Shown one piece after another: positions 13,401-58,068 of a stretch of DNA of 64,000 nucleotides. Made by a program: the position numbers and the translations under genes. The notes beneath the pieces are model-generated. The model was not told where the DNA came from. It ran no database searches and saw only the letters and a program-made list of their open reading frames with translations. The first letter of the stretch is position 1; each line of letters opens with the position of its first letter. Source of the DNA: Armatimonadota bacterium (GTDB lineage Bacteria > Armatimonadota > HRBIN16); contig OY781964.1 of assembly GCA_963677485.1 (NCBI GenBank), positions 3,328,001 through 3,392,000 on the forward strand. The letters are read 5' to 3'.

Positions 13401-13525
13401 CACCTGTCGGTGAGATACATCGCACTTTCAGCGTGGATGTGCCAGCGGGTGAACACACTGTGAAGATCGATAACCTGGGTGCCGACTGGATGTCGATTGA
13501 CGACTACCGGTTTGAAGGATTATGA
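10463..13525 (+). CDS. Secreted modular GH42-like beta-galactosidase with N-terminal CBM11-like domain and trimerisation (GATase-like) domain
   Basis: Signal peptide; LNLWVKGDG CBM11-type motif; FRAWLRQAY..SLSALRQAWG GH42-type motif; LLVIPN...DWVKAGGMLI..LGKGRVV. Confidence 0.6.
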   Translation: MMLLPILVSAVLLVVFTRGSQARTEGIDLLVVNDFEYGLDGWFTNDAGRNNPSATPYVQIDISNQAHSGKGALEMSFSDVKEWAAATYSLVPICLAWAEARVDTLNLWVKGDGREVTLTVGFQGTKDDMKPGLFHRVQVPVKGTDWLQVSIPFEQLQASQPEVKLRAISLYSLYIGVMSDIAAAKVLIDDITVSRRGTGTQYLYAGIHDAAVKRLPPARKMPRLGNWSWPFTNPEYLEPLQKLGLGFSDGITDGPALEMFYFTKGWLTNVIPNRLRAPQALAGLGLTSEDIDQDSQGHRADNGFEGAVYHPEVITRMNHSLTIQVAPLSKAPWVTSFIFTAPTSMYGELHFPMSTTGQYMVFSRPAKQSFRAWLRQAYAGSLSALRQAWGEPVPSWDVIVPPDGHNANGEGLDISQKWSDFIHWYNWCMLEIARNGYTTMRNCTRKPIEGMLGGPKVGMGQGIELGNIGPMMKMLGSIKPALFNDTDAQTLYSVRYSQTAARHYGVTLMVEHVGPPYLALAHQYEMLLNGLAVGASVFHLAHLGELFQPEHFFAKAWRALAPVVREVDTPGTQSKALMFHSYMTAWYRKSRNNADGLNLYDGVNTLWSSGLGYPSWGRVLDSPGVADDQMVEDGVLKGHTLLVIPNASVTVTSQKAVRSILDWVKAGGMLIGFGEGCLGYTVLPNRQLRPSPGFADTFTNQQLADARKQGLPRLEKQLGKGRVVLYLRAADVEERMPDGSKFVDWVMPQLANEAAKAGVKPKVTSDAGDTVNPLYAGQDRSTRRHIFTLDTIVKTRGSSVPVFVTNQRVRLLFDKSLRGEAELINITDSFESVQGGKAAFDADDRVLRIRFSVPTELVISYGDSASGIKAARHPLLFWDHTTLVLSPAGEFGVRQTQEPITVGADGSLSPADVKVTRLIHGDMHRANHGRGPTFQLQLRRKGAVHISVNSVSTDAVLVVYLDAVEVLRQMLSRSDSHTVPPVGEIHRTFSVDVPAGEHTVKIDNLGADWMSIDDYRFEGL

Positions 13526-13543
13526 CCATCAGCTTCATGCATC

Positions 13544-13585
13544 ATCACATACCCCCCAGCGCAGATGCGCTGGGGGGTATGTGAT
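13544..13585. terminator. Perfect 20-bp inverted repeat between convergent genes
   Basis: atcacataccccccagcgca-ga-tgcgctggggggtatgtgat. Confidence 0.75.
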
Positions 13586-13586
13586 C

Positions 13587-13647
13587 GTAGGGGCAAGCCC
13601 CTGTGCTTGCCCGTTTAACGGTTTGGGCGAGGAGACCTCGCCCCTAC
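13587..13647. repeat. Inverted pair of GTAG-type REPs (REPIN-like doublet)
   Basis: gtaggggcaagcccctgtgcttgccc ... gggcgaggagacctcgcccctac; the distal GTAG overlaps the TAG stop of the GH38 gene. Confidence 0.8.
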
Positions 13648-16583
13648 GCCAACCGTAGGCTCTTGATCTCGAAGGGGCGGAAGCTGAGCGCGATGGTGCT
13701 GTCCTGCACCTCCACACCCTCGATCGGCTCCTCCATGAGGTTCACCACCGTGGCCGACGATACCGGCAGGCCGCATGTCACCAGGCAGTCCACATCGGCA
13801 CCGGTGCCCTCATACAGTCGCACGATCAGACCTTCGCCGTCTTCCGCACGCTTGATCGCCTCCACATAGACGCTAGAGGAGCTCAGTTTCAGAATGCTGC
13901 CCTTGCTGCCGCTCTCCAAAACCCGTAGCGGGCTGTTCAGCACATGCGCGGCTTGACGTACTTGGCCCTTCACGTAGTCACCGGTGTGTGGGTATAACGC
14001 GTAGGTGAAGCTGTGCTGGGCACGGTCGGCCACAGGATCGGGATCGCCTGGGGTGCGCAGCAGGTGCAGGCTGATCTGCCCCTGGTGGAAGGCGTGGCCG
14101 TATTTGCAGTCGTTGAGTACCGCCACACCGCGTGACCGCTCGCTGAGGTCAACCCAGCGATGGGCACAGACCTCAAACATGCTGTATTCCCACACGGTGT
14201 TTTGGTGGGTGGGCCGCTGGATGGTGCCAAACTGGATTTCGCAGTCAGCGGTGTTGGTGTGGATGGTGGTGTCGAAGTCCGCACGCAGCTGCTTGGCGGC
14301 GTCCTTCCAGTCGCATTCGGTGCGGAACTCCAGACTGGCTGATCCCGCTGTGAGGGTGATCCACTGCGTCAAGCTGCTCTCGCCGTAGCGACGGACCTGC
14401 TTCAGCACCGCCTGCGGACCGTCCACATAAGCACACTGCTCCACGAGCTCCATATACTGTGGCATCTGGTCGGATAACCAGATTGGGAAGTCCCAGGCAT
14501 CGCCATAGTCATCATAGATACGGAGCTGGTTGCTGGGTGCTTCGAGTGCTTCAAATCCGGTCTTCTTGTCAAACATGCTGATAAGATTCCCACTGGCGTC
14601 AAACTCGGCGCGCACCAGCTCGTTCTCCAGCAGTGTCTCGGTAGCCGTCACTTCGGGAATCGCCTCCTGGCTGAGGATGCCGAAGCCGCAAGAGGGGGCC
14701 TGCGCCCACTGCCAGCCGCCGTCGGTCTTCACCCATTCACTGCGAAGCCAGCTCTGGCTGTTGAACACGCCTGCAGAACCCTGTCCCAGCGACGTCAGCG
14801 CGGTGCTGGTCAATGCGCAGACTTGCTCAGCCATGGCGGCGTACCGCTCTCGGCTTTCGTCGTACACGCGGGTGATGCTGCTGCCGGGGATGATGTCATG
14901 GAACTGGTAGAGCAGCACCTCTTTCCAGATTTTCTCCAACTCTGCCTTTGGATACTCCAGGCCTTTCACGCTGTTGGCCCAGGTGCTGAGCATCTCGCAA
15001 TCACGCAGCATCAACTCGATTTTGCGGTTCCACTTCTTGTTCCGTGCCTGGGTGGTGTAGGTGCCCTGATGGTGTGCGAGGTAGAGCTCGCCCTGCCAAC
15101 GCTCGAAGCGATGGGCATCCTTGGCGAACCTGGTCAGGAAGTCGCCGCACCATTCCTGCTTCACGCGAGGCAGTCCCAGCAGGTTACCGATGCGCTGCAG
15201 ACGCTCGATATGCTCTTCGCCCGGACCGCCGCCGCCGTCGCCGATTCCGAAGGCCATATACGCGGCTTCGCTGACACCTTTATCTATGTAACGCTGTTCG
15301 GTCACATAGGCTGATGTGGGGGTGGCGCTGCCGTTGTAGGTGTCCTCGGGCAGCAGATGAGTCATTACCTCTGAACCATCGATGCCGCTCCACCAAAAAC
15401 TATGGTGCGGGTAGGTTTTGAAGCTGTCCCAGCTAAGCTTTTGGGTGACAAACAGCTCGATACCGGCCAGTTTCATCACCTGAGGCAGGCTGCCAGTATA
15501 ACCGAAGCTGTCGGGCAGCCACACGATCTTACTGTCGATGCCGAACTTCTCGCGGAAATAGTTCTTACCGTACAGCAACTGGCGCACCAGCGATTCACCG
15601 CCAGGCAGGTTGGTGTCAATCTCCACCCACAGGCCGCCCAGAGGTTCCCATCGGCCTTCGGCTACGCGTTTCTCAATCTCCGCATACACGCTGGGGTAGT
15701 GCTGCTCCATCCATTCGTAAACCTGGGGCTGACTCTGCACAAATACGTATTCGGGATACCGCTCCATCATGCGCAGCGCGGTGGCGAAGGTGCGCGCGCC
15801 TTTACGGATGGTCTCACGAATGGGCCACAGCCAGGCCAGGTCGATGTGCGCATGTCCACCAGCACCGATGGTGAGCGTGGCATCTCCGCCTTTTTTGCTT
15901 AACTCGGGGGCCAGAATACCGCGTGCCCATTCGGCTTCGACTTCGTTGAGCTTTCTCATTCCCTGGAATACATCGCAAAGCGCGGTGAGTATCTGCGCCT
16001 TGCGTGCAGATCCTTCGGGCAGCACGGTGTAGAGGTCCAGCAGCACCTCAAAGTCATAGTAGAGCGCAGCCATCTGCGGGTTCTTGATGGCGATATTGGG
16101 CTGTTTATATGGTCCCCAAGTGCCGTGAGCACCGAACAGGCTGTTGGCCCCGGCGTCCATCCATATGTCGACCGTCTCGCCGCCCTTGGCAGGTTCGGCG
16201 AAGGGCACCACTCGTTTCCCCTCACAGCCCATGGCGTTTTTGACATGCGCCTTCACGTTGGTTGTGCCGATCACGGGGTTGCCGTCCGCATCCACCACCA
16301 GGCCTTCACCGCCCAGGTCGATCAGCAGCACGACTTGCTGGCCGGCGGCTTCAGCAGGGACGGTGCCAGAAAGGTGGAACCAGGCGCAGTCGAACAACTC
16401 GCCCCAGTTCTCGCCCACCTTGGCTTCAATGGGCTCACCGGACATGCGTTCGGAGTAGGGGACTGGCTCTTTGGTACGCCAAGCCTCCCAGTCCAGCGGG
16501 GCGATGACGGTATAACTGGAAGCATAAATGTGATCCCGAAGTCTAGGCAGCACTTTGGCGATGCGTATTTGATAACTAGGCAT
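13644..16583 (-). CDS. GH38 alpha-mannosidase
   Basis: GHAHIDLAWLW, WLPDSFGY, FGIGDGGGGP, GELYLAHHQGTYT, QFHDIIPGS, LNDCKYG; start MPSYQ after SD aggagg. Confidence 0.92.
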   Translation of the reverse strand: MPSYQIRIAKVLPRLRDHIYASSYTVIAPLDWEAWRTKEPVPYSERMSGEPIEAKVGENWGELFDCAWFHLSGTVPAEAAGQQVVLLIDLGGEGLVVDADGNPVIGTTNVKAHVKNAMGCEGKRVVPFAEPAKGGETVDIWMDAGANSLFGAHGTWGPYKQPNIAIKNPQMAALYYDFEVLLDLYTVLPEGSARKAQILTALCDVFQGMRKLNEVEAEWARGILAPELSKKGGDATLTIGAGGHAHIDLAWLWPIRETIRKGARTFATALRMMERYPEYVFVQSQPQVYEWMEQHYPSVYAEIEKRVAEGRWEPLGGLWVEIDTNLPGGESLVRQLLYGKNYFREKFGIDSKIVWLPDSFGYTGSLPQVMKLAGIELFVTQKLSWDSFKTYPHHSFWWSGIDGSEVMTHLLPEDTYNGSATPTSAYVTEQRYIDKGVSEAAYMAFGIGDGGGGPGEEHIERLQRIGNLLGLPRVKQEWCGDFLTRFAKDAHRFERWQGELYLAHHQGTYTTQARNKKWNRKIELMLRDCEMLSTWANSVKGLEYPKAELEKIWKEVLLYQFHDIIPGSSITRVYDESRERYAAMAEQVCALTSTALTSLGQGSAGVFNSQSWLRSEWVKTDGGWQWAQAPSCGFGILSQEAIPEVTATETLLENELVRAEFDASGNLISMFDKKTGFEALEAPSNQLRIYDDYGDAWDFPIWLSDQMPQYMELVEQCAYVDGPQAVLKQVRRYGESSLTQWITLTAGSASLEFRTECDWKDAAKQLRADFDTTIHTNTADCEIQFGTIQRPTHQNTVWEYSMFEVCAHRWVDLSERSRGVAVLNDCKYGHAFHQGQISLHLLRTPGDPDPVADRAQHSFTYALYPHTGDYVKGQVRQAAHVLNSPLRVLESGSKGSILKLSSSSVYVEAIKRAEDGEGLIVRLYEGTGADVDCLVTCGLPVSSATVVNLMEEPIEGVEVQDSTIALSFRPFEIKSLRLA

Positions 16584-16857
16584 AGGTATCCCTCCTGGTT
16601 GAGTAAAAGCAGATGATATTACTAATAGTTTAGCAGCGATGGAGTATGATTCCTGCTTGGACGATAAAGCCAGCTTCTGAGCACCGTCGATGTTATTCGT
16701 GATTCCGATTCGGTCTTGTGGATGTGCTATACTTGAGACACAGCCAAGAAGCTGCCCTGTGGCGAGAACCACTGGGCTAGACCCCGAACTGGGCATGACC
16801 CTCTTAGGGCGCGACCCCCCTACTCCCCCTGTTGGGGCGAGATTATGGGGGCCTCTT

Positions 16858-17175: not shown

Positions 17176-17778
17176 ATGAAACGCAATGGGCTACTAAAGT
17201 CTGCCTTGACGCTGACCGCCCTGGTTGTGCTAGGCGCATCCGCATTCGCACAGATTCCGAACGTGAAACCGCCATCGAACAACATGGCCTTCGAGTACAA
17301 TAGCCTCACTGCTATTGCCTACGAGAATCGCGCGGGTGAAGAACTCGATCTTGGTCTTCGGACTGAAATCTTGATTCGCCCTTACATCTATGTGACTGGT
17401 AATCTTACCAGCCGCTGGACTGTAAATGGATGGGGTTCTGCGGTCGATCAAAAAGAAGAGTGGCTGCACATCTATCACAACAAAGACCTGCGCCTGAAGT
17501 TCGTGGGCTGGGACCATCCCACCCTGAACGGAACTCCGGGAGCCGCAAATGTGAACATGCTTGTTAAACTGCAAGCTTTCGGTGCTAACGGAAATTCGCT
17601 TTGGTTAGGTGCTGACTATGCTCAAGCACCAGATGCCAACGTAGAGTTCCCCGTGATCACCGTTGGTGCAGATTATGGGCATCTCGCACTGGCTGTCGGC
17701 CGGCAGGTGCATATAACACAGACCACGGTTGCAGGCAACTACTACAACTACGCGACGATGATCGTAACCCAGCTCTAA
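17176..17778 (+). CDS. Secreted ~200 aa beta-rich protein, pilin/fimbrial-subunit-like
   Basis: Strong SD aaggagg, Sec signal (AFA|Q); C-terminal TTVAGNYYNYATMIVTQL resembles the AGxY..T.TV terminal strand of CS1/spore-coat-U/WxL-type subunits. Confidence 0.5.
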   Translation: MKRNGLLKSALTLTALVVLGASAFAQIPNVKPPSNNMAFEYNSLTAIAYENRAGEELDLGLRTEILIRPYIYVTGNLTSRWTVNGWGSAVDQKEEWLHIYHNKDLRLKFVGWDHPTLNGTPGAANVNMLVKLQAFGANGNSLWLGADYAQAPDANVEFPVITVGADYGHLALAVGRQVHITQTTVAGNYYNYATMIVTQL

Positions 17779-17904
17779 GGCTTGGTTATAAAACATCGCC
17801 CACTGGATTGTAACACTGCCGATTTTTGGCACGTTGATGAGATTTGGGCCCGCACTAATCAGCGGGCTCCTTTTCCTGTCATGTTCAATCTAGAGGTGAA
17901 TAAC

Positions 17905-19461
17905 ATGCGTATGTACAAAACAGTAGTAGCGAGCCTGTTCATGGCCACAGCACTGGCATCATCAATGTCTGCTCAGCAGCCTAGCGGCGGTATGGGCGGT
18001 CTGTTGGTGTCGCCGGGTATCCAGCGTGTGGATTCGCGCGCGGGTGCCACCGGCACGGTCAACTTTGAGCTGTATAATCCCAACACCGTGCCTACTATTG
18101 CCACCATAGAGCTCACCTCTTTTCTGCCGAAAGACTGGAGCTATGACGCGCAACTGAACGTACCTCATGCTCGCGATGCCAGTCCGTGGTTAAAGGTATC
18201 GCCTGAGACCTACCGATTTGGTCCCTATCAGCAACAGGTTCGCGGATACAACTATACGATCCCTCGCTCCGCCAAGGGAACCTACTGGTGTATGCTGCGT
18301 ATCAGTCCGCGTCCTGCATCTGGCGCCAGCACCAATAATGTGGTTTTTGAAGTGCCGATCATCTTCAATGTCGGCAGCGGTTACCGTCCAAACATCAAGC
18401 TGCAAACGCCTATCGTGACGGCGAACCCAGTCAAAACCGAAAGTAGTCTGGTGCTGACAGTGCCCATGCTTAACCTCGGTGATGGCAACGCGGTCATTAC
18501 CGCCACAGGAGACATCCGGCCTCTTGAGGGCGGTCGCATTATCAAGACATTTGATGTGCCTGACAAGAACCTGCTTCCTCAGAGCAAAAGATATATCCTC
18601 GCCGAACTACCGAAAGTATCTGATGGCAAGTATCGTGTGACGATGCGCATGAACGTGAATAGCCGCACATTGCCCAGAATTAAAGTAGATTTTGCTGTGG
18701 TGAAGGGTAAGGCGACAGGCCTTGATGACCCAAAGGTGCTGGAAATGGCTCCCATTTCTATAGAACCTCCGGCATTCGCGTTGGATATGCCGGCCGGGGC
18801 CACTAAGCAGCAGGCGTTGCGTATCCGGAACAATGGGACCAAGCCGATTACATTACAGATATCCGCCAACTCTGTGGAACAGGTAATAAGCGGAGCACTT
18901 GGGTCGAGTGAACTTCCCCCGCCGCAGGGGCTCACGGTCACTATCGATCCTGTGGAATTGGTGCTTCAGCCGAATGAGCTGGGCAGCAGCCGACTCCAGA
19001 TAGGTGTAGATAAATCGGCCAAGGGCGATTTATGGATGGCTTTGTCTGTGGCGGTGAAGGGCAGCACCACCAGTCTTCGTGAGATGATCACAGGTAATGT
19101 GATGGTCAGTAAGACGGCGGATCCCAAGATGGAAGTCACTGATCTGCAACTCATCAAGGCGCAGGGCAGGCCGATCCAAGTTCGGTTCAATGTGAAAAAT
19201 ACCGGAAACAAAGCGGTCTCGCCGGTCGCCACCGCCGCTATATTGGATCGTGGCGTTCAAGTGGTGAACTACCTGGAAGTGCCTCGTGTTGGTGATGGGG
19301 GTGTGATCCCGGGAGCTACGATCGCCAATTCCGTGATGCTTCCGATCGACATTAAGCCTGGGGAATACGTTGTAGAAATATCATATCAGTATACTCCTCA
19401 ACTTACAGCGAAGGGTCGACTGCCCTTATCTGTAGTAAAACCGGTAAAAAAGACTAAATAA
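17905..19461 (+). CDS. Secreted multi-Ig protein, PapD/EcpB/DUF916-like pilus chaperone
   Basis: Signal peptide; VSP...AGATGTVNFELYN, GTYWCML, and repeated V.N.G / PG.Y.V Ig-like motifs in about four domains. Confidence 0.5.
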   Translation: MRMYKTVVASLFMATALASSMSAQQPSGGMGGLLVSPGIQRVDSRAGATGTVNFELYNPNTVPTIATIELTSFLPKDWSYDAQLNVPHARDASPWLKVSPETYRFGPYQQQVRGYNYTIPRSAKGTYWCMLRISPRPASGASTNNVVFEVPIIFNVGSGYRPNIKLQTPIVTANPVKTESSLVLTVPMLNLGDGNAVITATGDIRPLEGGRIIKTFDVPDKNLLPQSKRYILAELPKVSDGKYRVTMRMNVNSRTLPRIKVDFAVVKGKATGLDDPKVLEMAPISIEPPAFALDMPAGATKQQALRIRNNGTKPITLQISANSVEQVISGALGSSELPPPQGLTVTIDPVELVLQPNELGSSRLQIGVDKSAKGDLWMALSVAVKGSTTSLREMITGNVMVSKTADPKMEVTDLQLIKAQGRPIQVRFNVKNTGNKAVSPVATAAILDRGVQVVNYLEVPRVGDGGVIPGATIANSVMLPIDIKPGEYVVEISYQYTPQLTAKGRLPLSVVKPVKKTK

Positions 19462-19571
19462 AATGAAAAACCAGTATAAATACTTGGACATTTGGACCAA
19501 TAGCAAGGTAACATATGAGAGCCTAGCAAATTTGCAGGCATCTATTTGTGTTGCACCCAAGGGGGTGTGAA

Positions 19572-22124
19572 ATGCTCGCATTTACTACTAAGGCGAAGCT
19601 GACCACAATAATTGTGCTGTCGATGATGGCACCCATGACTTGGAGCCAGGATGCGTCTATGACACCGGAGCCTGCACAGCAGGTTACCGTGGTGGTGAGA
19701 CGTGGCGATACGTTATGGGGATATTCGCGCAAATATGGATGCTCTGTAGCGCAAATTAAAGCAGCGAACAATTTGAAGCGTGATTCTGTAGTGCTTGGTG
19801 AACAGATTAAAATACCGACCTCGACCCCATCGATGGCTCCAGAAGCCTCTGAAACCGTCGCTGGAGATGCCCCTGTTGATCTATTGAACGGCTCTGCAGG
19901 TTCTGCACCCACTCCTGTGATCACTGAGAATGCTCCGATAGTGATGCATACTGTGAAATCTGGAGAAACATTACGATCAATCTGTGAAGCCTACGGTGTC
20001 AGTGCGCCGGAGTTCATTAAGCTGAATAAGATCGGTCCGGGATACAGGCTTGCTGTAGGGGCGAAGCTCAAGATTCCAGGGCGTGCCACGCCTGCTGAAC
20101 CGACATCAGACAATACTAATGTAAGTAATGACGTGCCGACTGCTGTCACCCAAACCGCCGATATAAGTGCTGATGGCACGGACCTGCTGGGGGCAGGGCA
20201 TCAGTCTGTGGCCAAACCGTCCCCTGGATCCAAACCAGCTAAGGATACAAGCACAAGCACAAGCACGAACACGAGTTCGACATCAAACCAGGCCAAACCT
20301 CCGTCAGACCTGGACAGTTGGATCAACGCTGTGCCTGGCGACGAGCCGCCCCCTACACAGAACGCCTTACCGAAAGAAAACGGAACCGAACCTGATAACA
20401 CATCTGGCAATGTGTTAAAGCCTGATACCCAAAACACAAATACATCCGAGACAGGCTCTCATACAGGCAGTTCTCTGCCATCACTCGGCTCTGAGCAAAC
20501 GCCTCCGGAGCCGGTACCTGTACAGATGGCATCGCCTGACAGCCAAAATACGGGTACTGAGACGACTACTTCTACAAACACAGATAATACTAGCGGGCCA
20601 AATAAGGACCAGTCTGAACTATTGGTGCCTGACACATCGACGGCTGCATCTCCGCCCACTGAACTGCTGGTGCCGGATACCAGCACAGCAGCAAATACCA
20701 CGAGCACAAATAAGCCCTCTGTCACAACACCGGATGTCAGTAAACCCAATGTGTTAGTGCCAGATGACCAACAGGCGGGAACGACCAATGTCGTTCCTTC
20801 TGTGCCTGATGCCGGTGGGGCGACTGTGCTCGTTCCGGATGTTGAGGGGAGCGCTAGCGAAAACTCCACGGTAGTGACCCCAGATGATGGAAGCAGCACA
20901 AACAACTATTCATCCAATATAGGTGGTGTAACCAACCTGTTGGATAGTACGCCAGTGGTGACCGATGTTGAGATACCGACGGTCAAGAAGAATCAGCCTC
21001 TGGTGACCAATGTATTTGTGGATTCCGACATTAAGCAGGTTCTGTCAGATATCGCGAGTGTGGCGCATGTCGTGATTATCTCGGACGACAGTGTGAAGCC
21101 GCAGAATATCTCGATCGAATTTAACAAGGAGCCTCTCGACACGGCTCTCGAAAAGGTGGCTCTGTCTGGCGGATTAGTTTGGAAAGAGCGATCAGATGGT
21201 GTTTATCTGGTCAGCTCAGGCACACCCGATTCGCCTCTGTTTCGCGAATTCGCCATGACTAAGCGGTATATGCCATCTAATATGAGCGCTGAAACGCTGG
21301 GGGATCTGCTTTCCAGTAGTTGGAAGAACTACTACAAGGTAGACAAAGTTGGGAACATGATCACCATCACAGCACCCCCTCAAGTGTCTGAAAAGATCGA
21401 ACGCGACCTCAAGATGATCGATTCACCCCTGCGTCAGATCGTGGTGGATGCAGTCATTATCGAGATGACAGCCGATACCGGTATGGACACCGGCTTTAGC
21501 TGGAACTTCGGCAAAGGCGGGGTTGATGCGGACCAGAACATAGTGTATGCCAAAGCGACTGAGCTTGACTTTGTGAAGCTCAAGGCTTTGTTGGCAAATG
21601 GCAACGCGAAGATGAAGGCAAATCCAAGGGTTTCATGTTTTGAGGGTAGAGAGACCACGCTGACCGTCGGAAAAGAGACTTTCTACTCCATCATCACAGG
21701 GAATGCGATATACGGCTCATCACAGATCCAAAAGATAGCCACCGGTATTACCTTGAAGGTGACCGTGTATATCGGGGCTGATGGCTATGTCACGATGAAG
21801 CTGGACCCCGAAGTGGGGGACTTTACCACTCCGGTCGGTGGCAATCCTACTGTGACCATACGGCGAGCCAATACCACTATGCGGGTCAAGAGCGGCGAGA
21901 CTTTGGTCATCGGTGGATTGGTGCAAGAGCTAGAATCGAAGAGTGCGACCAAGGTACCTGTACTGGGCGACCTTCCGTTTATCGGTGAGTTGTTCAAGTC
22001 AAATAAGACCAGTAAATCACGAACAGATGTCGTGATGTTGATCACCCCGCACCTTTCTGAAAAGGGAGCGGGCGACGTAACCGAGACGTTGCGTAAGCTA
22101 GATGCGTCAGCTTTGAAGCAATAG
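19572..22124 (+). CDS. LysM-containing secretin (GspD/PilQ family)
   Basis: Two LysM (VVRRGDTLWGYSRKYG; TVKSGETLRSICEAYG), S/T/P-rich linker, N-domains, secretin core QIVVDAVIIE, ANPRV, GITLKVT, GETLVIGGL, KVPVLGDLPFIGELFK, MLITPH. Confidence 0.92.
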   Translation: MLAFTTKAKLTTIIVLSMMAPMTWSQDASMTPEPAQQVTVVVRRGDTLWGYSRKYGCSVAQIKAANNLKRDSVVLGEQIKIPTSTPSMAPEASETVAGDAPVDLLNGSAGSAPTPVITENAPIVMHTVKSGETLRSICEAYGVSAPEFIKLNKIGPGYRLAVGAKLKIPGRATPAEPTSDNTNVSNDVPTAVTQTADISADGTDLLGAGHQSVAKPSPGSKPAKDTSTSTSTNTSSTSNQAKPPSDLDSWINAVPGDEPPPTQNALPKENGTEPDNTSGNVLKPDTQNTNTSETGSHTGSSLPSLGSEQTPPEPVPVQMASPDSQNTGTETTTSTNTDNTSGPNKDQSELLVPDTSTAASPPTELLVPDTSTAANTTSTNKPSVTTPDVSKPNVLVPDDQQAGTTNVVPSVPDAGGATVLVPDVEGSASENSTVVTPDDGSSTNNYSSNIGGVTNLLDSTPVVTDVEIPTVKKNQPLVTNVFVDSDIKQVLSDIASVAHVVIISDDSVKPQNISIEFNKEPLDTALEKVALSGGLVWKERSDGVYLVSSGTPDSPLFREFAMTKRYMPSNMSAETLGDLLSSSWKNYYKVDKVGNMITITAPPQVSEKIERDLKMIDSPLRQIVVDAVIIEMTADTGMDTGFSWNFGKGGVDADQNIVYAKATELDFVKLKALLANGNAKMKANPRVSCFEGRETTLTVGKETFYSIITGNAIYGSSQIQKIATGITLKVTVYIGADGYVTMKLDPEVGDFTTPVGGNPTVTIRRANTTMRVKSGETLVIGGLVQELESKSATKVPVLGDLPFIGELFKSNKTSKSRTDVVMLITPHLSEKGAGDVTETLRKLDASALKQ

Positions 22125-22145
22125 GCTTGAGATGACACGAGGAGA

Positions 22146-25100
22146 ATGACCATGAAAAAGATCACCAACCAGCCAGGGAGTTCCAGTATTAAGGTAGTGC
22201 TCGCAGCAGCATTGCTGGCTTTGGCCGTATTTACGCCATTGGCGGCACAGTCGCCAGACCTTACGGCTACAACGTCAATACCGGATTCTGTGCTTGACCA
22301 GGTGGCTGAGCCCAGTCAGAATACGGCGCAACCGGCAGCTAGACGATACACCGTAAAGCATCGAAGAGTCGCGCCTCGCCATACATATACTCAGGTACGC
22401 AGACCTGCGCTTGTAGCGGCGGTGCCTGCTGGTCGTACTACGGTGAAAGCGGTGGCGCAGGGATCTGGTGTCAAACTCACCATAAAAAGCCCTAGCTCGC
22501 TTGCTGTCAAGGCTAACAACGGCTCAACCATGGTATTGATGGATGTTCATGGTGGACGGGCGGTGGTTCCCGGCAGCTCCAAGGTGAATGGGGTGGCTCT
22601 TCGATGGTACATGGCCGCGCGAGATGATGGGCAAAACCCAGCCATTGAGGCATTCTGCGCCAGTGCGATGAAGATGGAGATGTCGCAACCCAGTCCGAAT
22701 ACCGTGGTTGTTTGGCTTTGGCCTGCTGCAGGAAGCTCTGCGAGTGCAGCCCCTGCACAGAACGTGACGAAAAGCAAACCAGCAGTCAGCAACACTTCGT
22801 CAACGATGATGGGCGGGGCTACGGCTCCCGTCGCCCAATCGGCACAAGCGAATATGATGCGCTCCGCTGCTCTTGATGCGGTTCGTCGGGCGGGAGCACC
22901 GAACGTGATGGTGACGACGGGTGGTCAGGCTGAGATGGGCTCCGGTTCGACCGGCAACGCTTCTTCCATGGCACCCTCCGGTCGATCATCGCTGCAATCC
23001 AATGACCCGGCACCTTCACCACAAAGCCCATGGCAGATGTTGCCAGCGGTTGTTTCAGGAAATGCTTCGGATGTGTCGAAGATGATCCCGTTCACCGCAC
23101 TGGGTGCTGAAGATCCGATGAAGTTTACGGGGATAGCAAGAATACGTCAGCTCACGGTGGGTGTGAGTTATCCAAAAAAACTGACCGGTGCCACACTAAA
23201 GTTCAAGATCAGTCATAGTCCGGCTTTGCTGGAAGAGATCTCCAGTATGAAGGTAGAGATTAACCACCGCACAGTGGCCGTTCTGCCTTTAATGCGCAAG
23301 GACTACATGGGCCGCGTGTATGAGATACCGATTGACCCTAAACTGTTGGGTAGTTTCAATACCATTACTTTCGGTTTGATAGGCAGCTATACTCTGTTCT
23401 GCGAAGATCCCAACAGCCCACTTATCTGGTCTGAGGTTCTGGATGGAAAACTGGTGCTCGATCGACAGGAAGTTCCGGGGTTATATGACCTGGCGGAACT
23501 GCCTGCGCCGTTCTTCAGCACCTCACAGAACACTTCTGTAAATCTGAATATGATGGTTGGCCGCCAAAAGGGAAGCGTCTGGGCTGGCTCAGTTGTCGCT
23601 GGCTGGTTTGGTGTTCAGTCCGACTATCGGCCATTGAACCTTAAGGTGACAGATTCTCTTTCTGCAGGCAATGTGATCGCGGTCATGCTGGAATCTGAGC
23701 TGCCTCAGGTATTATCGCAATATGCAGTTGGCAACCCCAGCATCCAATTGATACCCAATCCTATGGGCGGCGGTGCCGTGTTACTGGTAACCGGCAGCAG
23801 CGAAGAGCAGTTGCGGGTAGCCGCAGGTGCCTTAGCATTCTCGTCATTACCTATGAGCGGTTCCCGTGTGGCGGTGCAGGAGTTTACCCCTCCCAGCAAG
23901 CGGAACCCATACGATGCGCCGCGCTGGATACCATCTGACCGACCGGTTCGGTTCGGAGATTTGATAGCTCGTGATGCGATGGAATCTGTCGGCTTGACAG
24001 CCGATCCTATACGTCTGCCTTTCCGCCTGCCGCCGGATCTTTTCCTGCAGCAGACCAAGGGTTTGCCGATCAACCTGAGTTACCGCTACACACCTGGTCG
24101 CAACCAGACCAACAACCGTCTTGACGTGTTTGTCGACAACCAGTTACTGCAGAGCTATCCGTTGCTGTCGCAATGGAACGACCCTGAGGGTGCCGCGCAA
24201 ACTATTAAACCTGGTTACAAAGAGTATGAAAAACAACGCACATTCTACATCACAGATGCTTACAATAAGCCGACAGCGGGTGAGCTGCAATTCCGGTTTG
24301 CGTTTGACTATACGCGTGAAAATCCGTGTAACGACTTCCCGTTCTTCGCGTTCCGGGGAAGGATTGACCCAGACAGCACGATTGATCTGACGAACATTCC
24401 GCATTATGTTCGTATGCCGGACTTGTCGCTGTTCGTAAACAACGGATATCCGTATACCAAGCTGGCTGATCTATCGGAAACTGTGTTCTCGCTGCCGGAT
24501 AACCCCAGCACAGCGGAGCGGACTGCGCTCATGGCAGTGTGCGCCAGATTTGGTGCTATCACAGGCATGGCTCCTTACCGGCATGTATTGATCAACGGCG
24601 CTCAGACGGCTCCGCTTGGTAAAGACATCATCGCCATCCGTGACGATAATGGTGCCGCCTTACCAGATGCATGGCGCGATGCGCTGCAACTACGCGCTCA
24701 GGGTGGTGGATTCCGTATACGAGACAACGACCTGAATGACCTGTTCAACGACACAGATGGGCAGCTAAACAGGCAAGAACTGGGCGATCTGCTGGCCAGT
24801 CAAGATGGACAGCTCTCAGTAATGGTCTCTTGCGAGCGGCCTGACGACAAAAGCCGATGCCTGGTGGCCATGCTGGCTACTGGCCCCGATATGCTTGACC
24901 ATATGGTGGCGGCATATTTGGATCCGAACCTGCGAAGCGGCATCAAACGTGATACCGCCGTATTCGGTCCTGAGGCGGTGAAAACCGCACGACTGGCCAA
25001 AGCGTTCTATGTTGGTAATCTACCTATGGCAGACGCCGTGCATCTGTGGCTGCGCAACTATCCGCTTGTGTGGATCAGCCTGACTCTGCTGTTGATCCTC

Positions 25101-25193
25101 ATCGGTGTGATGTCCTTCCGAAGGTATCGTCATCTGCGACAGATCGTGGCGCAGGGCGGACAGCAGCCTACTCCTGGCAGCTCCACACCATAG
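22146..25193 (+). CDS. bcsB: BcsB-family periplasmic co-polymerase subunit with ~300 aa N-terminal extension
   Basis: SHSPALL, CEDPNSPLIW, LPAPFF, PYDAPRWIPSDRPVRFGDL, FRLPPDLF, IDPDSTIDL, MPDLSLFVNNGYPYTKLADLSET, FYVGNLP and a C-terminal TM anchor. Confidence 0.88.
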   Translation: MTMKKITNQPGSSSIKVVLAAALLALAVFTPLAAQSPDLTATTSIPDSVLDQVAEPSQNTAQPAARRYTVKHRRVAPRHTYTQVRRPALVAAVPAGRTTVKAVAQGSGVKLTIKSPSSLAVKANNGSTMVLMDVHGGRAVVPGSSKVNGVALRWYMAARDDGQNPAIEAFCASAMKMEMSQPSPNTVVVWLWPAAGSSASAAPAQNVTKSKPAVSNTSSTMMGGATAPVAQSAQANMMRSAALDAVRRAGAPNVMVTTGGQAEMGSGSTGNASSMAPSGRSSLQSNDPAPSPQSPWQMLPAVVSGNASDVSKMIPFTALGAEDPMKFTGIARIRQLTVGVSYPKKLTGATLKFKISHSPALLEEISSMKVEINHRTVAVLPLMRKDYMGRVYEIPIDPKLLGSFNTITFGLIGSYTLFCEDPNSPLIWSEVLDGKLVLDRQEVPGLYDLAELPAPFFSTSQNTSVNLNMMVGRQKGSVWAGSVVAGWFGVQSDYRPLNLKVTDSLSAGNVIAVMLESELPQVLSQYAVGNPSIQLIPNPMGGGAVLLVTGSSEEQLRVAAGALAFSSLPMSGSRVAVQEFTPPSKRNPYDAPRWIPSDRPVRFGDLIARDAMESVGLTADPIRLPFRLPPDLFLQQTKGLPINLSYRYTPGRNQTNNRLDVFVDNQLLQSYPLLSQWNDPEGAAQTIKPGYKEYEKQRTFYITDAYNKPTAGELQFRFAFDYTRENPCNDFPFFAFRGRIDPDSTIDLTNIPHYVRMPDLSLFVNNGYPYTKLADLSETVFSLPDNPSTAERTALMAVCARFGAITGMAPYRHVLINGAQTAPLGKDIIAIRDDNGAALPDAWRDALQLRAQGGGFRIRDNDLNDLFNDTDGQLNRQELGDLLASQDGQLSVMVSCERPDDKSRCLVAMLATGPDMLDHMVAAYLDPNLRSGIKRDTAVFGPEAVKTARLAKAFYVGNLPMADAVHLWLRNYPLVWISLTLLLILIGVMSFRRYRHLRQIVAQGGQQPTPGSSTP

Positions 25194-25202
25194 CGAAAGG
25201 AA

Positions 25203-26402
25203 GTGGATGCGATGCATTTGGTAAATAAGCTCCTTGGTCTATCGGTTTCGTTAGTCTGTATAGCCGCCAGTCTCACCTGCCTGGCGGCAGATAAAGTATA
25301 CGAAGCGGATATGAACAAGTTCTATGATCTTCAAAAGACAGATCAAGCTGCAGCGATGGATCTCATGCTGCAGCTTGCCCGAAAATATCCGCAGAATAGA
25401 ACCGTGCAGTTGAGTGCAGGCTATCAGTTGCTTGCAAAGAAAGAGCCTGCTCTGGCACTGCCGTATTTTGAGACGAGCTATAAGCTGGATCCCGGCGATA
25501 TACAGACCGTGATGCAGATAGGGTTCTTGCTTGATGGGTTGGGTCGGCAAAAAGAGGCGATGCGTTATTTCCGCATTGCCATGAACAGCAAGGCTGATAA
25601 CAAAACACGAGACCAGGCTTCTACAGCGGTCCAAAACCTGGCAGGTCAGCAGACACGGCAGTTGAAAGATCCGCAGTTTGTCGAGTTCACCTTTTCCCCG
25701 CTGTACATGAGCCGGTTCGACAACACGATATTTCCAATGAACTTGAAGCTGGGCACCAAGCTTGCCGGTATGAAGAACACTGATGTCTATGTGAGCTTGA
25801 AGAGCAGCAAAGATAGCCGAAGCGGTATAGGGGCCATACCAAAGATATTTAATGATAATGCGCTGGTCATGGCTCTTGGCATCAGGACGCAGCCATTTGA
25901 TGGTATTCCTATTACGCTGTATGCCGAAGCTGGCACGGCCTACAAATACCTGAAAGACCCTTACGAAAAGCAGTGGCAGGAAGACTACCGCGTGGGCGCC
26001 TACTATTTCAAGGGGTTTGAGCCAGGCTTCAAAATCACACAGCTCAAGGCTTTCCAACCCATGGGTGACATCAACATGGATGTTTCCTATTATTCCAGAT
26101 ATGACAATAACATCATAGGGTTTGGGCGAGGCCGTCTAGGGTTGCGGGTGATCAATACGGCATCCAGCTATGCAGACTTGTATGCACTGGGTTCCATCTC
26201 ATTTGACACCAAGGGCGAGTACTACAACAATAACCTGGCTGGTGGCATAGGCATTGCCTGGAGACCGGATCGTTTCACACCTCTGACCCTCCATGCAGAA
26301 TACATCTGGGGTAGTTATATTGGTGGCGGAGTAAGGCCATCCGATGTCATGCCATCCTACGAAGACCTGCAAATAGGCATGGATTGGTACGTGAGGTTAT
26401 AG
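25203..26402 (+). CDS. TPR plus outer-membrane beta-barrel protein (NfrA/YaiO-like export porin candidate)
   Basis: Signal peptide, 2-3 TPR-like helical repeats (AGYQLL..ALPYFE..YKLDP; IGFLLDGLGRQKEAMRYFR), followed by aromatic alternating beta strands to the C-terminus. Confidence 0.6.
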   Translation: MDAMHLVNKLLGLSVSLVCIAASLTCLAADKVYEADMNKFYDLQKTDQAAAMDLMLQLARKYPQNRTVQLSAGYQLLAKKEPALALPYFETSYKLDPGDIQTVMQIGFLLDGLGRQKEAMRYFRIAMNSKADNKTRDQASTAVQNLAGQQTRQLKDPQFVEFTFSPLYMSRFDNTIFPMNLKLGTKLAGMKNTDVYVSLKSSKDSRSGIGAIPKIFNDNALVMALGIRTQPFDGIPITLYAEAGTAYKYLKDPYEKQWQEDYRVGAYYFKGFEPGFKITQLKAFQPMGDINMDVSYYSRYDNNIIGFGRGRLGLRVINTASSYADLYALGSISFDTKGEYYNNNLAGGIGIAWRPDRFTPLTLHAEYIWGSYIGGGVRPSDVMPSYEDLQIGMDWYVRL

Positions 26403-26403
26403 T

Positions 26404-28488
26404 ATGTCGACTATAGCAGCGCGAAAACAGCGCTTTGAGATACCCATAGGGCCTCTTGAAGCGATCACACTAGTCACTGCTATCACCTTCATGATTGCTG
26501 GCTTTACACTGGCACTATGGGCCATCAGCGACTTGATGGGCTATTTCCGCGTGACGGGTTGGATGATCCTGGGGCAGGTGTTTGGATGGCTGCTGGCGTT
26601 TGTGGCCACCATATTCCTGCTGTCGGGACTAGACGACCTGTTCTTGGACCTAATCTACTACACACGCAAAATCGTCTCTCACAAGCGGATGACCAAGGCT
26701 CCGTATGCCGCCATTTCGCTAGAGCAGTTGAACACCAGGGAGCGTAAGCGCATTGCGCTGATGGTGCCGTGCTGGCGTGAGGCGGAAGTAATCGGAGCGG
26801 CCATTGCACATAACCTGGAAATTATCGACTACGATAACTACGAGGTTTTTGTCGGAACATATCCTAACGACCAGCTGACCATCGATGCTGTGGCTGAGGC
26901 GGCTTCCCGATTTCCTAGGGTTCACTGCGTGGTGGGTGCCAACCCCGGCCCAACTAACAAAGCGGACAACCTCAACCAGGTATACATGGCGATTCTACAG
27001 TATCAAGAATCCTCAGGTAACCTATTTGATGTGATTGTCATGCATGACGCGGAGGATGTTATTCATCCCATGGCGTTCAAGCTTTACAACTATCTGATGC
27101 CTGAGGCGGGGATGGTGCAGATACCCATCTTCCCTCTTGAGGTGCCGTTGTTTAACTTCACCCACTGGGTATACAACGATGAATTTGCCGAATACCACGT
27201 AAAAGACGTTGTGAGCCGCGGTTTGATAAGCGGTATCGTGCCTTCGGCTGGTGTGGGCACGGCATTCAGCCGAGATGCACTGCAGAAGCTGAACGACATT
27301 TACGCAGGTGAAGTGTTCAGCACCAATAGTCTGACGGAAGACTATGCGATCTCGGTAAAGATCAGGAAGCATAACCTGCGGCCGGTCTTCGTTCAGCAGT
27401 TCGTGCCGCGTATCGTGGACCGTAGAAAGTATTTCGGTTTGTTTGGACCCTGGGTGGAAGCGACTGTGCCTGAGTGGATCGCCACGCGGTCATTCTTCCC
27501 GACAGTCTATCGCAACGCGGTGCGCCAGCGCAGCCGTTGGATACTCGGCATCGTGTTCCAGGAGTGGACCAACACAGGATGGCCGGGTACCCTGGCGATG
27601 AAATACTGCCTGTATCGGGACCGCAAAGCCCTTTTCGCCAACTTTGTGACTATGTTGGGATATATGGTGTTTATCTACACCATTATCTTTGCTGTCTGGA
27701 CACAATATTGGCCAGATTCGCTGCAGATGATGTCATTAATGGAATACCGAACCTGGCTGAGTTTCGTTCTAGTGGCAGACCTGTTCCTGATGCTATTTAG
27801 GATGAGCCAGAAGGTGACTACGAATTACAGGCTTTACGGGTTCTTGCCAGCCATGCTTAGCGTCACACGCACGCCCTACGCGAACATCATCAGCTCTCAT
27901 GCAATGTTCATTGCCATGCAGCAGTTTTTCAAGGGACGCAAGACTGGTATCCAGTTGTCATGGGAAAAGACGACTAACCGGTTCCCGACAATGGTTACGC
28001 CTGAGCGAGTTGTCTTGACTTTACGTGAGATTATGAAATTGCGAGGCTACGTGACAGACGAGCAGTTGCTAGAGGCTTCTATTAATACGAACGATACTGA
28101 TGAAGCAGTGGTACAGTATCTGCTTACGCATAACATCATCACGTCGCAGGAACATCTGCAGTCAATTTCCGAGCTGTATCAAGTACCATTCATCGACATC
28201 GAAAGTGCCTCGTCGACGTCTGGGCAGCTCACGAACCTGCCAAAGAGCGTGATGGATACCTTGTTGCGGCATGGTATCATCCCCATCCGCTTGATTGGCG
28301 ACCACTTGCTGTTGGTGTTAGCGCATCCTGACCTGGCATTTGGTGATGAAGAGATACTAGAGGTTCTGTCTGACTACACCATTGAACTTGGTCTGTCACT
28401 GCCAGAAGATATCGAGCGGTATTACATAGAACACGGCATTGCCATGCAGCCGCACACTCATGAAGAGGGCGAGAACCAGGAACCGTAG
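26404..28488 (+). CDS. nfrB: NfrB-like processive GT2 glycosyltransferase with C-terminal MshEN/T2SSE_N-like domain
   Basis: LSGLDDLFLD, IALMVPCWREAEVI, VGTYPND, PGPTNKADNLN, HDAEDVIHP, PSAGVGTAFSR, SLTEDY, RQRSRW (QxxRW), RDRK, WEKT: hallmark NfrB motifs. Confidence 0.85.
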   Translation: MSTIAARKQRFEIPIGPLEAITLVTAITFMIAGFTLALWAISDLMGYFRVTGWMILGQVFGWLLAFVATIFLLSGLDDLFLDLIYYTRKIVSHKRMTKAPYAAISLEQLNTRERKRIALMVPCWREAEVIGAAIAHNLEIIDYDNYEVFVGTYPNDQLTIDAVAEAASRFPRVHCVVGANPGPTNKADNLNQVYMAILQYQESSGNLFDVIVMHDAEDVIHPMAFKLYNYLMPEAGMVQIPIFPLEVPLFNFTHWVYNDEFAEYHVKDVVSRGLISGIVPSAGVGTAFSRDALQKLNDIYAGEVFSTNSLTEDYAISVKIRKHNLRPVFVQQFVPRIVDRRKYFGLFGPWVEATVPEWIATRSFFPTVYRNAVRQRSRWILGIVFQEWTNTGWPGTLAMKYCLYRDRKALFANFVTMLGYMVFIYTIIFAVWTQYWPDSLQMMSLMEYRTWLSFVLVADLFLMLFRMSQKVTTNYRLYGFLPAMLSVTRTPYANIISSHAMFIAMQQFFKGRKTGIQLSWEKTTNRFPTMVTPERVVLTLREIMKLRGYVTDEQLLEASINTNDTDEAVVQYLLTHNIITSQEHLQSISELYQVPFIDIESASSTSGQLTNLPKSVMDTLLRHGIIPIRLIGDHLLLVLAHPDLAFGDEEILEVLSDYTIELGLSLPEDIERYYIEHGIAMQPHTHEEGENQEP

Positions 28489-28527: not shown

Positions 28528-28604
28528 TCGGACGGATCAGGTTCACAGTTGCTAACTGTCAATTACCAATTGACAATTGTGTGAACCTGATCCGTCCGAT
28601 TTTT
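28528..28604. terminator. Perfect 20-bp inverted repeat between convergent genes, with T-tract
   Basis: tcggacggatcaggttcaca (28528-28547) / tgtgaacctgatccgtccga (28580-28599), ttttt; loop contains caatt-type 7-mer repeats. Confidence 0.8.
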
Positions 28605-55750: not shown

Positions 55751-55761
55751 TATAATCTCCG

Positions 55762-57894: not shown

Positions 57895-58068
57895 GACTGC
57901 ATTTCGCTTCACGTGACCAGATGTTCTTACCAAAATATTACCATGCCAATCTGAGCTCAACTTTGCCGTGCTCGTGTATCGATTTTGTCAAGCTCATTAT
58001 AACACACAAACAAGCAACTGCCCGTGCTGACACGGCAGCCCAGGCTGTAACTGATTCGTACCCTTCAA

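Follow-up and report, generated by a model that had tools for sequence, protein, structure and literature searches.

The subject of this report is the region 22146-28488 of a 64,000-nucleotide stretch of Armatimonadota DNA from contig OY781964.1 (the window, throughout its length). Three open reading frames (ORFs) on the forward strand, of 1015, 399 and 694 aa and separated by gaps of 9 and 1 nt, encode a BcsB protein, a protein with a TPR part and a beta-barrel, and an NfrB-type family 2 glycosyltransferase (GT2). Probably the three genes act together as a single unit that secretes a non-cellulose surface glycan by a synthase-dependent route. Distinct here are the cellulose-like BcsB, an extra helix in the synthase and the replaced glycines of its MshEN domain, while the pairing itself is already known.

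A conserved three-gene order

The features of the unit, all on the + strand, are these:

22146..25193, +, bcsB: 1015 aa, likely start at 22152 (ribosome-binding site and start examined); signal peptide, lineage-specific extension of ~310 aa, four-domain core, amphipathic helix, membrane anchor
22419..22730, +, conserved segment of ~100 aa in the N-terminal extension of BcsB, aligned in 4 loci
25062..25118, +, BcsB transmembrane anchor, residues 973-991, from hydropathy and alignment
25203..26402, +, TPR and beta-barrel export gene, 399 aa
26404..28488, +, NfrB-type processive GT2 synthase gene, 694 aa
26452..26532, +, additional hydrophobic helix at the N-terminus of the synthase (residues ~17-43), ahead of what is normally the first membrane helix in the family
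28021..28428, +, MshEN-like domain with a degenerate cyclic di-GMP (c-di-GMP) motif; Pfam MshEN 22.7 bits, cut-off 23.1, and alignment
28528..28604, +, inverted repeat with perfect 20-bp arms (28528-28547 and 28580-28599), then five T

A preliminary description of this DNA had placed the glycosyltransferase next to bcsB; the barrel gene in fact separates the two. The order bcsB-barrel-nfrB is retained in four related genomes (loci L001-L004) despite differing flanking genes, over a divergence that reaches 40% identity for BcsB and 55% for the NfrB core, and the gene trees of BcsB and synthase are concordant within this clade. The inverted repeat, which starts 40 nt past the synthase stop, is the sole copy in the window, with a convergent rsgA opposite; its hairpin fold has a z-score of -7.7, none of 200 shuffles folding equally well, and it is a probable intrinsic terminator that closes the three-gene unit. 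A promoter and terminator scan came out near chance (17 promoters against 11.9 +/- 3.7, 8 terminators against 10.8) and missed this long hairpin, and Rfam gave no match within the window. Neither bcsA, bcsC, bcsZ, bcsE or bcsG nor wecB was found in the 64-kb window or at the L001-L004 loci, and two BcsA proteins used as tblastn queries at E 0.01 had no match there.

The BcsB protein is of the cellulose type

The bcsB product matches Pfam BcsB (PF03170) over residues 312-908 at E 1.9e-144 (482.8 bits; cut-off 21) and the E. coli BcsB chains in the PDB at E 1.6e-74, while its top score on the NCBIfam BcsB equivalogs, 507, lies below the cut-off of 750. The BcsB motifs had been called well conserved, and RxPYDAPxW, IDxDSTID, MPDL..F.N.GYP and YVGxLP are all found; the cysteines C419 and C728 are invariant in a 58-row alignment, and the four-domain periplasmic layout is assigned by homology. 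The C-terminal membrane anchor that had been proposed holds up as well: hydropathy shows a hydrophobic stretch at residues 973-991 with a basic tail after it, and in the alignment it is preceded by YVGNLP and then an amphipathic helix, as in cellulose BcsBs. What had been overlooked is an N-terminal extension of ~310 residues. Its conserved segment of ~100 aa, apparently beta-rich, has no meaningful Pfam match and no PDB match, and a search of 1.84 billion representatives returned one match, a close relative; a by-eye likeness to AMIN was dropped, as neither Pfam nor the PDB supported it. The BcsB core is 97% identical to P0121, a protein named from an Armatimonadota metagenome-assembled genome.

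Against six BcsBs from cellulose operons the protein aligns at E 1e-73 to 1e-101 across 646-706 residues, whereas against 15 other BcsB-like proteins linked to nfr genes no match was better than E 2.8e-4; the alignment identities are 26-30% and 13-19%, respectively. RxPYDAPxW, MPDLxxFxNxGYP and YVGxLP are kept in the window protein and missing from the other nfr-linked BcsBs, and of its top plasmid matches five were opened, three adjoining bcsA and two bcsZ. In a 31-row IQ-TREE phylogeny it falls into a group with support 100/97, whose other members are 12 rows linked to cellulose genes and 4 whose context is unknown, and an approximately unbiased (AU) test against a single clade of all nfr-linked BcsBs (13 versus 18 rows) rejected that clade at p 6.5e-5. 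Of 62 rows, 31 had been dropped before this tree was built, either because they were near-duplicates or to limit the run time. All BcsB trees exclude L067 and the partial L003, and contain no R. sphaeroides-type, Gram-positive, Acinetobacter or Achromobacter BcsBs.

The cellulose-operon motifs and the higher identity suggest that a cellulose-type BcsB was recruited separately from the other nfr-linked BcsBs, which we regard as likely but not proven, because the AU rejection hinges on two rows whose gene context is unknown. Two results weigh against separate recruitment: without these rows, P0223 and P0226, the split stands in the best tree with a bootstrap of 37%, and in FastTree the clade came out beside the cellulose group, as its sister, and not within it. 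Independent recruitment as a proven fact would thus be an overclaim, and the alternative is an old, slowly evolving partner.

A BcsB of this kind could also serve a bcsA encoded elsewhere and be a passenger beside the nfr genes. Its motifs and tree position are indeed those of the cellulose type, split bcs operons exist, and two of the five opened bcsB loci had no bcsA in the fetched stretch. Yet the bcsB-barrel-nfrB order has outlasted a deep divergence in which the flanking genes were exchanged, and no other bcs gene lies nearby in five loci; we find a passenger role improbable.

The synthase carries an extra N-terminal helix

The signatures by which the glycosyltransferase had been assigned to the NfrB type are present (VGTYPND at 150, GPTNKADNLN at 182, HDAED at 214 and RQRSRW at 374), together with TED at 311, and those of BcsA are lacking as stated, with no HAKAGN, FFCGS or PilZ-type RxxxR..DxSxxG pattern in the protein. 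It is 36% identical to E. coli NfrB over 571 aa, and in the alignment the catalytic residues are intact, D215, D313 and W379 corresponding to D169, D267 and W330. On the NfrB equivalog PRK11234 it scores 471 bits, below the cut-off of 1170, and on the wider family model PRK14716.1-3 it scores 434.6, above the cut-off of 409. The predicted fold resembles BcsA and hyaluronan synthase, which are processive GT2 enzymes; structure comparison gave no close solved structure for the glycosyltransferase domain of the NfrB family.

The extra hydrophobic helix at the N-terminus was overlooked in the preliminary description. Among 90 NfrB-type sequences it occurs in all five synthases that accompany a cellulose-type BcsB and in 1 of the 85 others (3 of which are N-terminally truncated); that one, L047, is doubtful, its start having probably overshot because an internal ATG yields the family's usual length. 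In cellulose synthase the BcsB anchor lies in a groove formed by TM1-3 of BcsA, and catalysis depends on it (PMC8892547); a GT2 that has no N-terminal helix to coil with BcsB also has no bcsB neighbour (PMC10374906). On the model of BcsB docking on BcsA, we suggest the extra helix as a candidate docking site, and we lean slightly towards an arrangement in which the tail anchor of BcsB packs against the N-terminal helices of the synthase, including the one gained in this clade.

Several observations count against such docking. The correlation between helix and BcsB is confined to a single clade and thus amounts to one evolutionary event, and AlphaFold2, from an alignment that is shallow there, shows residues 17-95 as one continuous helix with no separate membrane helix. 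Derivation of the helix from the N-terminus of BcsA was rejected, since it has no similarity to 29 BcsA sequences and reversed controls scored higher. When residues 1-530 of the synthase and 590-1005 of BcsB were modelled as a complex, the scores were 0.18 and 0.06 against a mark of 0.32; the controls were not folded, and the outcome weighs neither way.

BcsB might instead serve only as a scaffold in the periplasm, or to guide the chain from synthase to barrel, in a role like the one proposed for YbcH, and not complete the membrane channel. Absence of bcsB from 42 of 54 evaluable nfrB loci (see below) speaks for this, as does YbcH of E. coli, a non-essential, membrane-anchored periplasmic accessory (PMC8669469) with no homologue found in the window or L001-L004; the short TPR part of the barrel protein also means that a periplasmic bridge may be needed. 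On the other side, YVGxLP, the amphipathic helix and the anchor, the part required for catalysis with BcsA, are conserved here and not in other nfr-linked BcsBs, and the extra synthase helix was gained in the same clade. We judge a pure scaffold unlikely, and favor a BcsB whose tail completes or stabilises the channel.

A degenerate c-di-GMP site

The MshEN-like domain at the C-terminus of the synthase had likewise escaped notice. Compared with E. coli NfrB, G491 is R541, G519 is V570 and L509 is S559; loss of both glycines is common to the window, L001 and L002, while all 14 of the other aligned rows, L003 and L004 among them, retain both. Since G491L abolishes the function of E. coli NfrB and G519S partly does so (PMC8669472), one might suppose that in this sub-clade the unit has fallen silent or is in decay, with a broken c-di-GMP switch, and loss of the G491 equivalent could also mean an inactive enzyme, which would count against an active unit. 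Three genomes nevertheless retain all three genes intact, the changed MshEN domain still shares 93% and 73% identity with those of L001 and L002, and 16 homologues have no MshEN at all; decay seems to us highly improbable.

The domains of the synthase are conserved above the adjoining rsgA (98.6% and 87.3% identity to L001 and L002 for the glycosyltransferase domain, in addition to the MshEN values, against 82% and 65% for rsgA) and homologues without MshEN exist, which suggests an enzyme that is probably active yet blind to c-di-GMP. The 16 MshEN-less homologues, from genomes with Bacteroidota, Ignavibacteria or Chlorobi labels, end right past the membrane part, so switch-free forms of the NfrB type are common. 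They lie among L053-L077 and most have ~470 aa; 15 of them sit behind a TPR-barrel gene, with a small response-regulator-type gene then following in many. In the two relatives that retain the MshEN glycines, a gene for a receiver-PAS-histidine kinase-receiver hybrid (translation read) converges on the synthase (L004 12042-14381 and L003 5753-8098, - strand).

The putative outer-membrane export protein

The AlphaFold2 model of the barrel protein (pLDDT, the predicted local distance difference test score, 88.5) consists of a signal helix, a TPR part at ~31-146 and a beta-barrel at 158-398, with about 12 strands as counted from its DSSP list. The best Foldseek match is E. coli BcsC (9b8a, E 3.2e-9); a VIA search was filled by TPR matches, the top barrel being PcoB (Z 11.0, root-mean-square deviation 4.0, 192 aligned). 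By sequence, the barrel has no match to those of NfrA, BcsC or PgaA, and the family profile matches NfrA in the TPR part only. Because of this, and because the strands number ~12 where an NfrA has TPR and a 16-strand barrel, the protein as modelled is an analogue that would fill the role of NfrA or BcsC, and not a relative of NfrA in barrel sequence.

BcsB-NfrB pairing in other genomes

A scan of GTDB genomes found 191 related stretches, of which 79 loci enter the counts that follow. A barrel homologue stands beside nfrB in 67 of the 79, wecB is present in 30, and 15 have a BcsB-like gene: 4 of the cellulose type, which are L001-L004, the closest relatives of the window; 10 divergent ones in Legionellales, Coxiellaceae and other Gammaproteobacteria; and 1 weak. 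In a plasmid collection 167 records match the synthase, and in four of nine opened plasmid or chromid loci a divergent bcsB directly precedes nfrB, with wecB before it in the three that are annotated. The pairing of BcsB with NfrB is thus recurrent and optional for the family. The novelty that the preliminary description implied for it was overstated, as pairing is common in related loci and a cluster of nfrA, nfrB and wecB with a BcsB homologue has been published for Achromobacter xylosoxidans (Sellner et al., PMC8669472). In Acinetobacter baumannii, insertion in or deletion of pgrD, a BcsB homologue, abolishes adsorption of phage StAb3 to a proposed N-acetylmannosamine (ManNAc) glycan (PMC12507263), and Listeria pssD, beside a non-cellulose GT2, has been called a BcsB orthologue (PMC4125290), the Pss product being a beta-1,4-ManNAc polymer with galactose branches (PMC13492145). 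Catalysis by NfrB, its c-di-GMP binding and its linkage to wecB are described in PMC8669469, the part of PMC7112194 examined does not mention NfrB, and PMC8461298 contains nothing on Pss. On loci of the Armatimonadota or Legionellales type we found no paper, in a search that most subscription journals lay outside of.

Some of the distribution speaks against a partnership of BcsB with the synthase. Among the 54 loci covering at least 6 kb upstream and at least 3 kb downstream, a detectable bcsB is present in 12 and none in 42, so NfrB-type enzymes are not generally dependent on BcsB. Nine of the 10 loci with a divergent BcsB have wecB, and neither the window nor L001-L004 does; further, no full-length BcsB-NfrB fusion occurs among 63 longer homologues. 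P0289 comes nearest, with two BcsB-like flavodoxin domains (~96-422) and no carbohydrate-binding domains fused to an NfrB-type glycosyltransferase whose C-terminus is extended, with an MshEN match. Its BcsB-like part scores 26.5 bits on the profile, the best of 100 shuffles reaching -0.5, but it is one sequence on one contig with a degenerate DxD and an hhalign probability of 20%; we take the fusion as a hint, a further pointer to the partnership.

Other arrangements were seen along the way. In Legionella gratiana (L011 1798-16131) barrel, synthase and divergent bcsB are each present in two copies within 15 kb, and at L019, L021, L037 and L052 transcription of the divergent bcsB runs in the direction leading off from the barrel-synthase pair, not in line with it. 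Among the NfrB proteins of E. coli, many that are 1246-1302 aa long (P0233-P0285, one cluster on 527 contigs) carry PF05488 and PF20148, which we take to be of the PAAR/Rhs type, and P0228-P0232 and P0286-P0288 have the look of NfrB-NfrA fusions (PF13283).

Proposed mechanism and significance

The preliminary description proposed that BcsB had been recruited as co-polymerase for a different polymer. The conserved gene order, the lack of bcs genes nearby and the published precedents lend this partial support; the physical binding that a co-polymerase implies is putative. In the scheme that we propose, the inner-membrane GT2 would polymerise a UDP-sugar and push the chain through its own membrane helices. 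By analogy to NfrB, UDP-ManNAc or a related N-acetylhexosamine appears the most likely sugar, a choice we make with modest confidence. The cellulose-type BcsB would act as co-polymerase, its periplasmic domains guiding the chain and its tail completing or stabilising the membrane channel, and the TPR and ~12-strand barrel protein would, going by its model, carry the chain over the outer membrane. In the sub-clade of the window the MshEN domain would no longer bind c-di-GMP, leaving the synthase constitutive or otherwise controlled.

A more far-reaching scenario is that in this lineage an NfrB-type synthase took up a true BcsB from a cellulose operon, independently of the divergent BcsB-like partners in Proteobacteria, gained a new helix that rebuilds the docking groove and, in the sub-clade, lost its response to c-di-GMP; this combination is possible, though we consider it doubtful. 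If true, two machines for making polysaccharides would have exchanged a subunit in nature, with BcsB as a polymer-agnostic plug-in that needs only a packing helix, and the locus would provide a switch-free NfrB enzyme for making and solving the NGR-type glycan in vitro. The NfrB-made glycan is a receptor for many phages, and its chemical structure is uncharacterised in the papers cited. The locus is compact, with three genes and a synthase that may not need c-di-GMP, and L003 and L004, which keep the switch, make it one half of a natural on/off pair. Since the window BcsB is close to cellulose BcsBs of solved structure, it is, among the cases seen here, the easiest in which to ask whether BcsB completes the channel of a non-cellulose synthase; the gain would be mechanistic and not conceptual, because BcsB with non-cellulose synthases is already established.

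Neighbouring genes

Three genes precede bcsB on the same strand:

17176..17778, +, 200-aa secreted protein; no Pfam match; atlas lead PF05229 in 14% of the cluster, score 0.94
17905..19461, +, secreted multi-Ig protein; atlas leads, recognition 2279 against a mark of 2300
19548..22124, +, two LysM, a long low-complexity linker and a secretin (Pfam LysM, Secretin); 21 nt before bcsB

As a weak lead, the first product may be related to fimbrial major subunits (SCPU-like); its identity is 98% in L001 and 92% in L002, and L004 lacks it. The second, found in the window, L001 and L002 only, may resemble PapD or WxL-interacting chaperones, again a weak lead. The LysM-secretin gene adjoins bcsB in L001 and L002, while L004 has a RecJ-like gene (translation read) in its place. 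Possibly these genes are co-transcribed with the bcsB unit, and possibly they form a fimbrial-type unit that uses the secretin, no usher gene being seen; they lie outside the conserved core, because they are absent before bcsB in L004. The GC content at third codon positions (GC3) of the six genes in 17176-28488 is 0.54-0.64, against 0.64-0.81 for most of 22 other measured genes (three of which are likewise low, at 0.52-0.59), a weak sign hinting at an older acquisition.

Further out, many glycoside hydrolase (GH) genes lie at 10463-16796 and 30146-52061 (GH38, GH20, GH3, GH127-like, GH42-like and alpha-amylase-like), and a glycyl-radical enzyme is also among the genes there. The GH20 hexosaminidase-family gene at 33958, ~5.5 kb downstream of the unit, is also present in L001. 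On the reverse strand, two tandem genes at 52766-57960 (-) code for proteins rich in RCC1 repeats, with a dockerin-like domain at the C-terminus.

Comparison with known systems

The unit would work like the NGR and PGR systems, yet stands outside both the strict E. coli Nfr system and the cellulose system. It is not a strict Nfr member because the synthase scores below the NfrB equivalog cut-off, the MshEN glycines are replaced and the barrel is not of the NfrA type; it is not a cellulose system because there is no BcsA. With E. coli NfrB-NfrA-YbcH (NGR; PMC8669472, PMC8669469) it shares an NfrB-type GT2 with DxD, TED and QxxRW and an MshEN-like domain, and an outer-membrane partner made of TPR and a beta-barrel. 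In contrast to that system it has no ybcH, has bcsB in the unit, carries an extra N-terminal helix and has replaced c-di-GMP glycines; its exporter has 399 aa and ~12 strands where NfrA has 990 aa and 16 strands in a sequence-unrelated barrel, and the barrel gene comes before the synthase gene.

The betaproteobacterial wecB-bcsB-nfrB-nfrA clusters (Achromobacter xylosoxidans, PMC8669472; Variovorax, Paraburkholderia, Burkholderia and Ralstonia, L081-L083 and L086) likewise join a BcsB-family gene to an NfrB-family synthase, and the stretches that are annotated contain no bcsA. The BcsB of these clusters has diverged strongly, with 14-16% identity to the window protein and Pfam matches at E 1e-7 to 1e-9; wecB and a large NfrA-type neighbour are present in the three annotated loci, and the MshEN glycines are intact in all four. 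The nearest relatives are the pairs of TPR-barrel and NfrB-like genes in Legionellales, Coxiellaceae, Sulfuricurvum and Elusimicrobiota (~40% identity for the synthase, ~30% for the barrel), which have the same barrel-then-synthase order and, in 10 such loci, a BcsB-like gene. They differ in that this BcsB is 13-19% identical to that of the window, wecB is often present, the first MshEN glycine is intact and there is no extra helix.

In the PGR system of A. baumannii (PgrC synthase, PgrD BcsB homologue, PgrF WecB, PgrG porin; PMC12507263) a BcsB homologue is genetically required for a non-cellulose glycan, but by structure PgrD shares 9% identity with BcsB of E. coli, against 27-29% for the window BcsB. 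The Pss system of Listeria monocytogenes (PssC GT2, PssD BcsB orthologue; PMC4125290, PMC13492145) also has a BcsB-like subunit beside a non-cellulose GT2; it differs in being Gram-positive, with no outer-membrane barrel and a separate c-di-GMP receptor, PssE, and PssC is described as IcaA/HmsR- and BcsA-like, not NfrB-like. The cellulose system BcsA-BcsB(-BcsZ-BcsC), finally, has in common with the window the BcsB core, its motifs and tail anchor, the GT2 fold and the TPR-barrel architecture of the exporter, whereas the window has no BcsA signatures or PilZ, no bcsZ, bcsC, bcsE or bcsG, and a BcsB with ~310 aa extra at its N-terminus.

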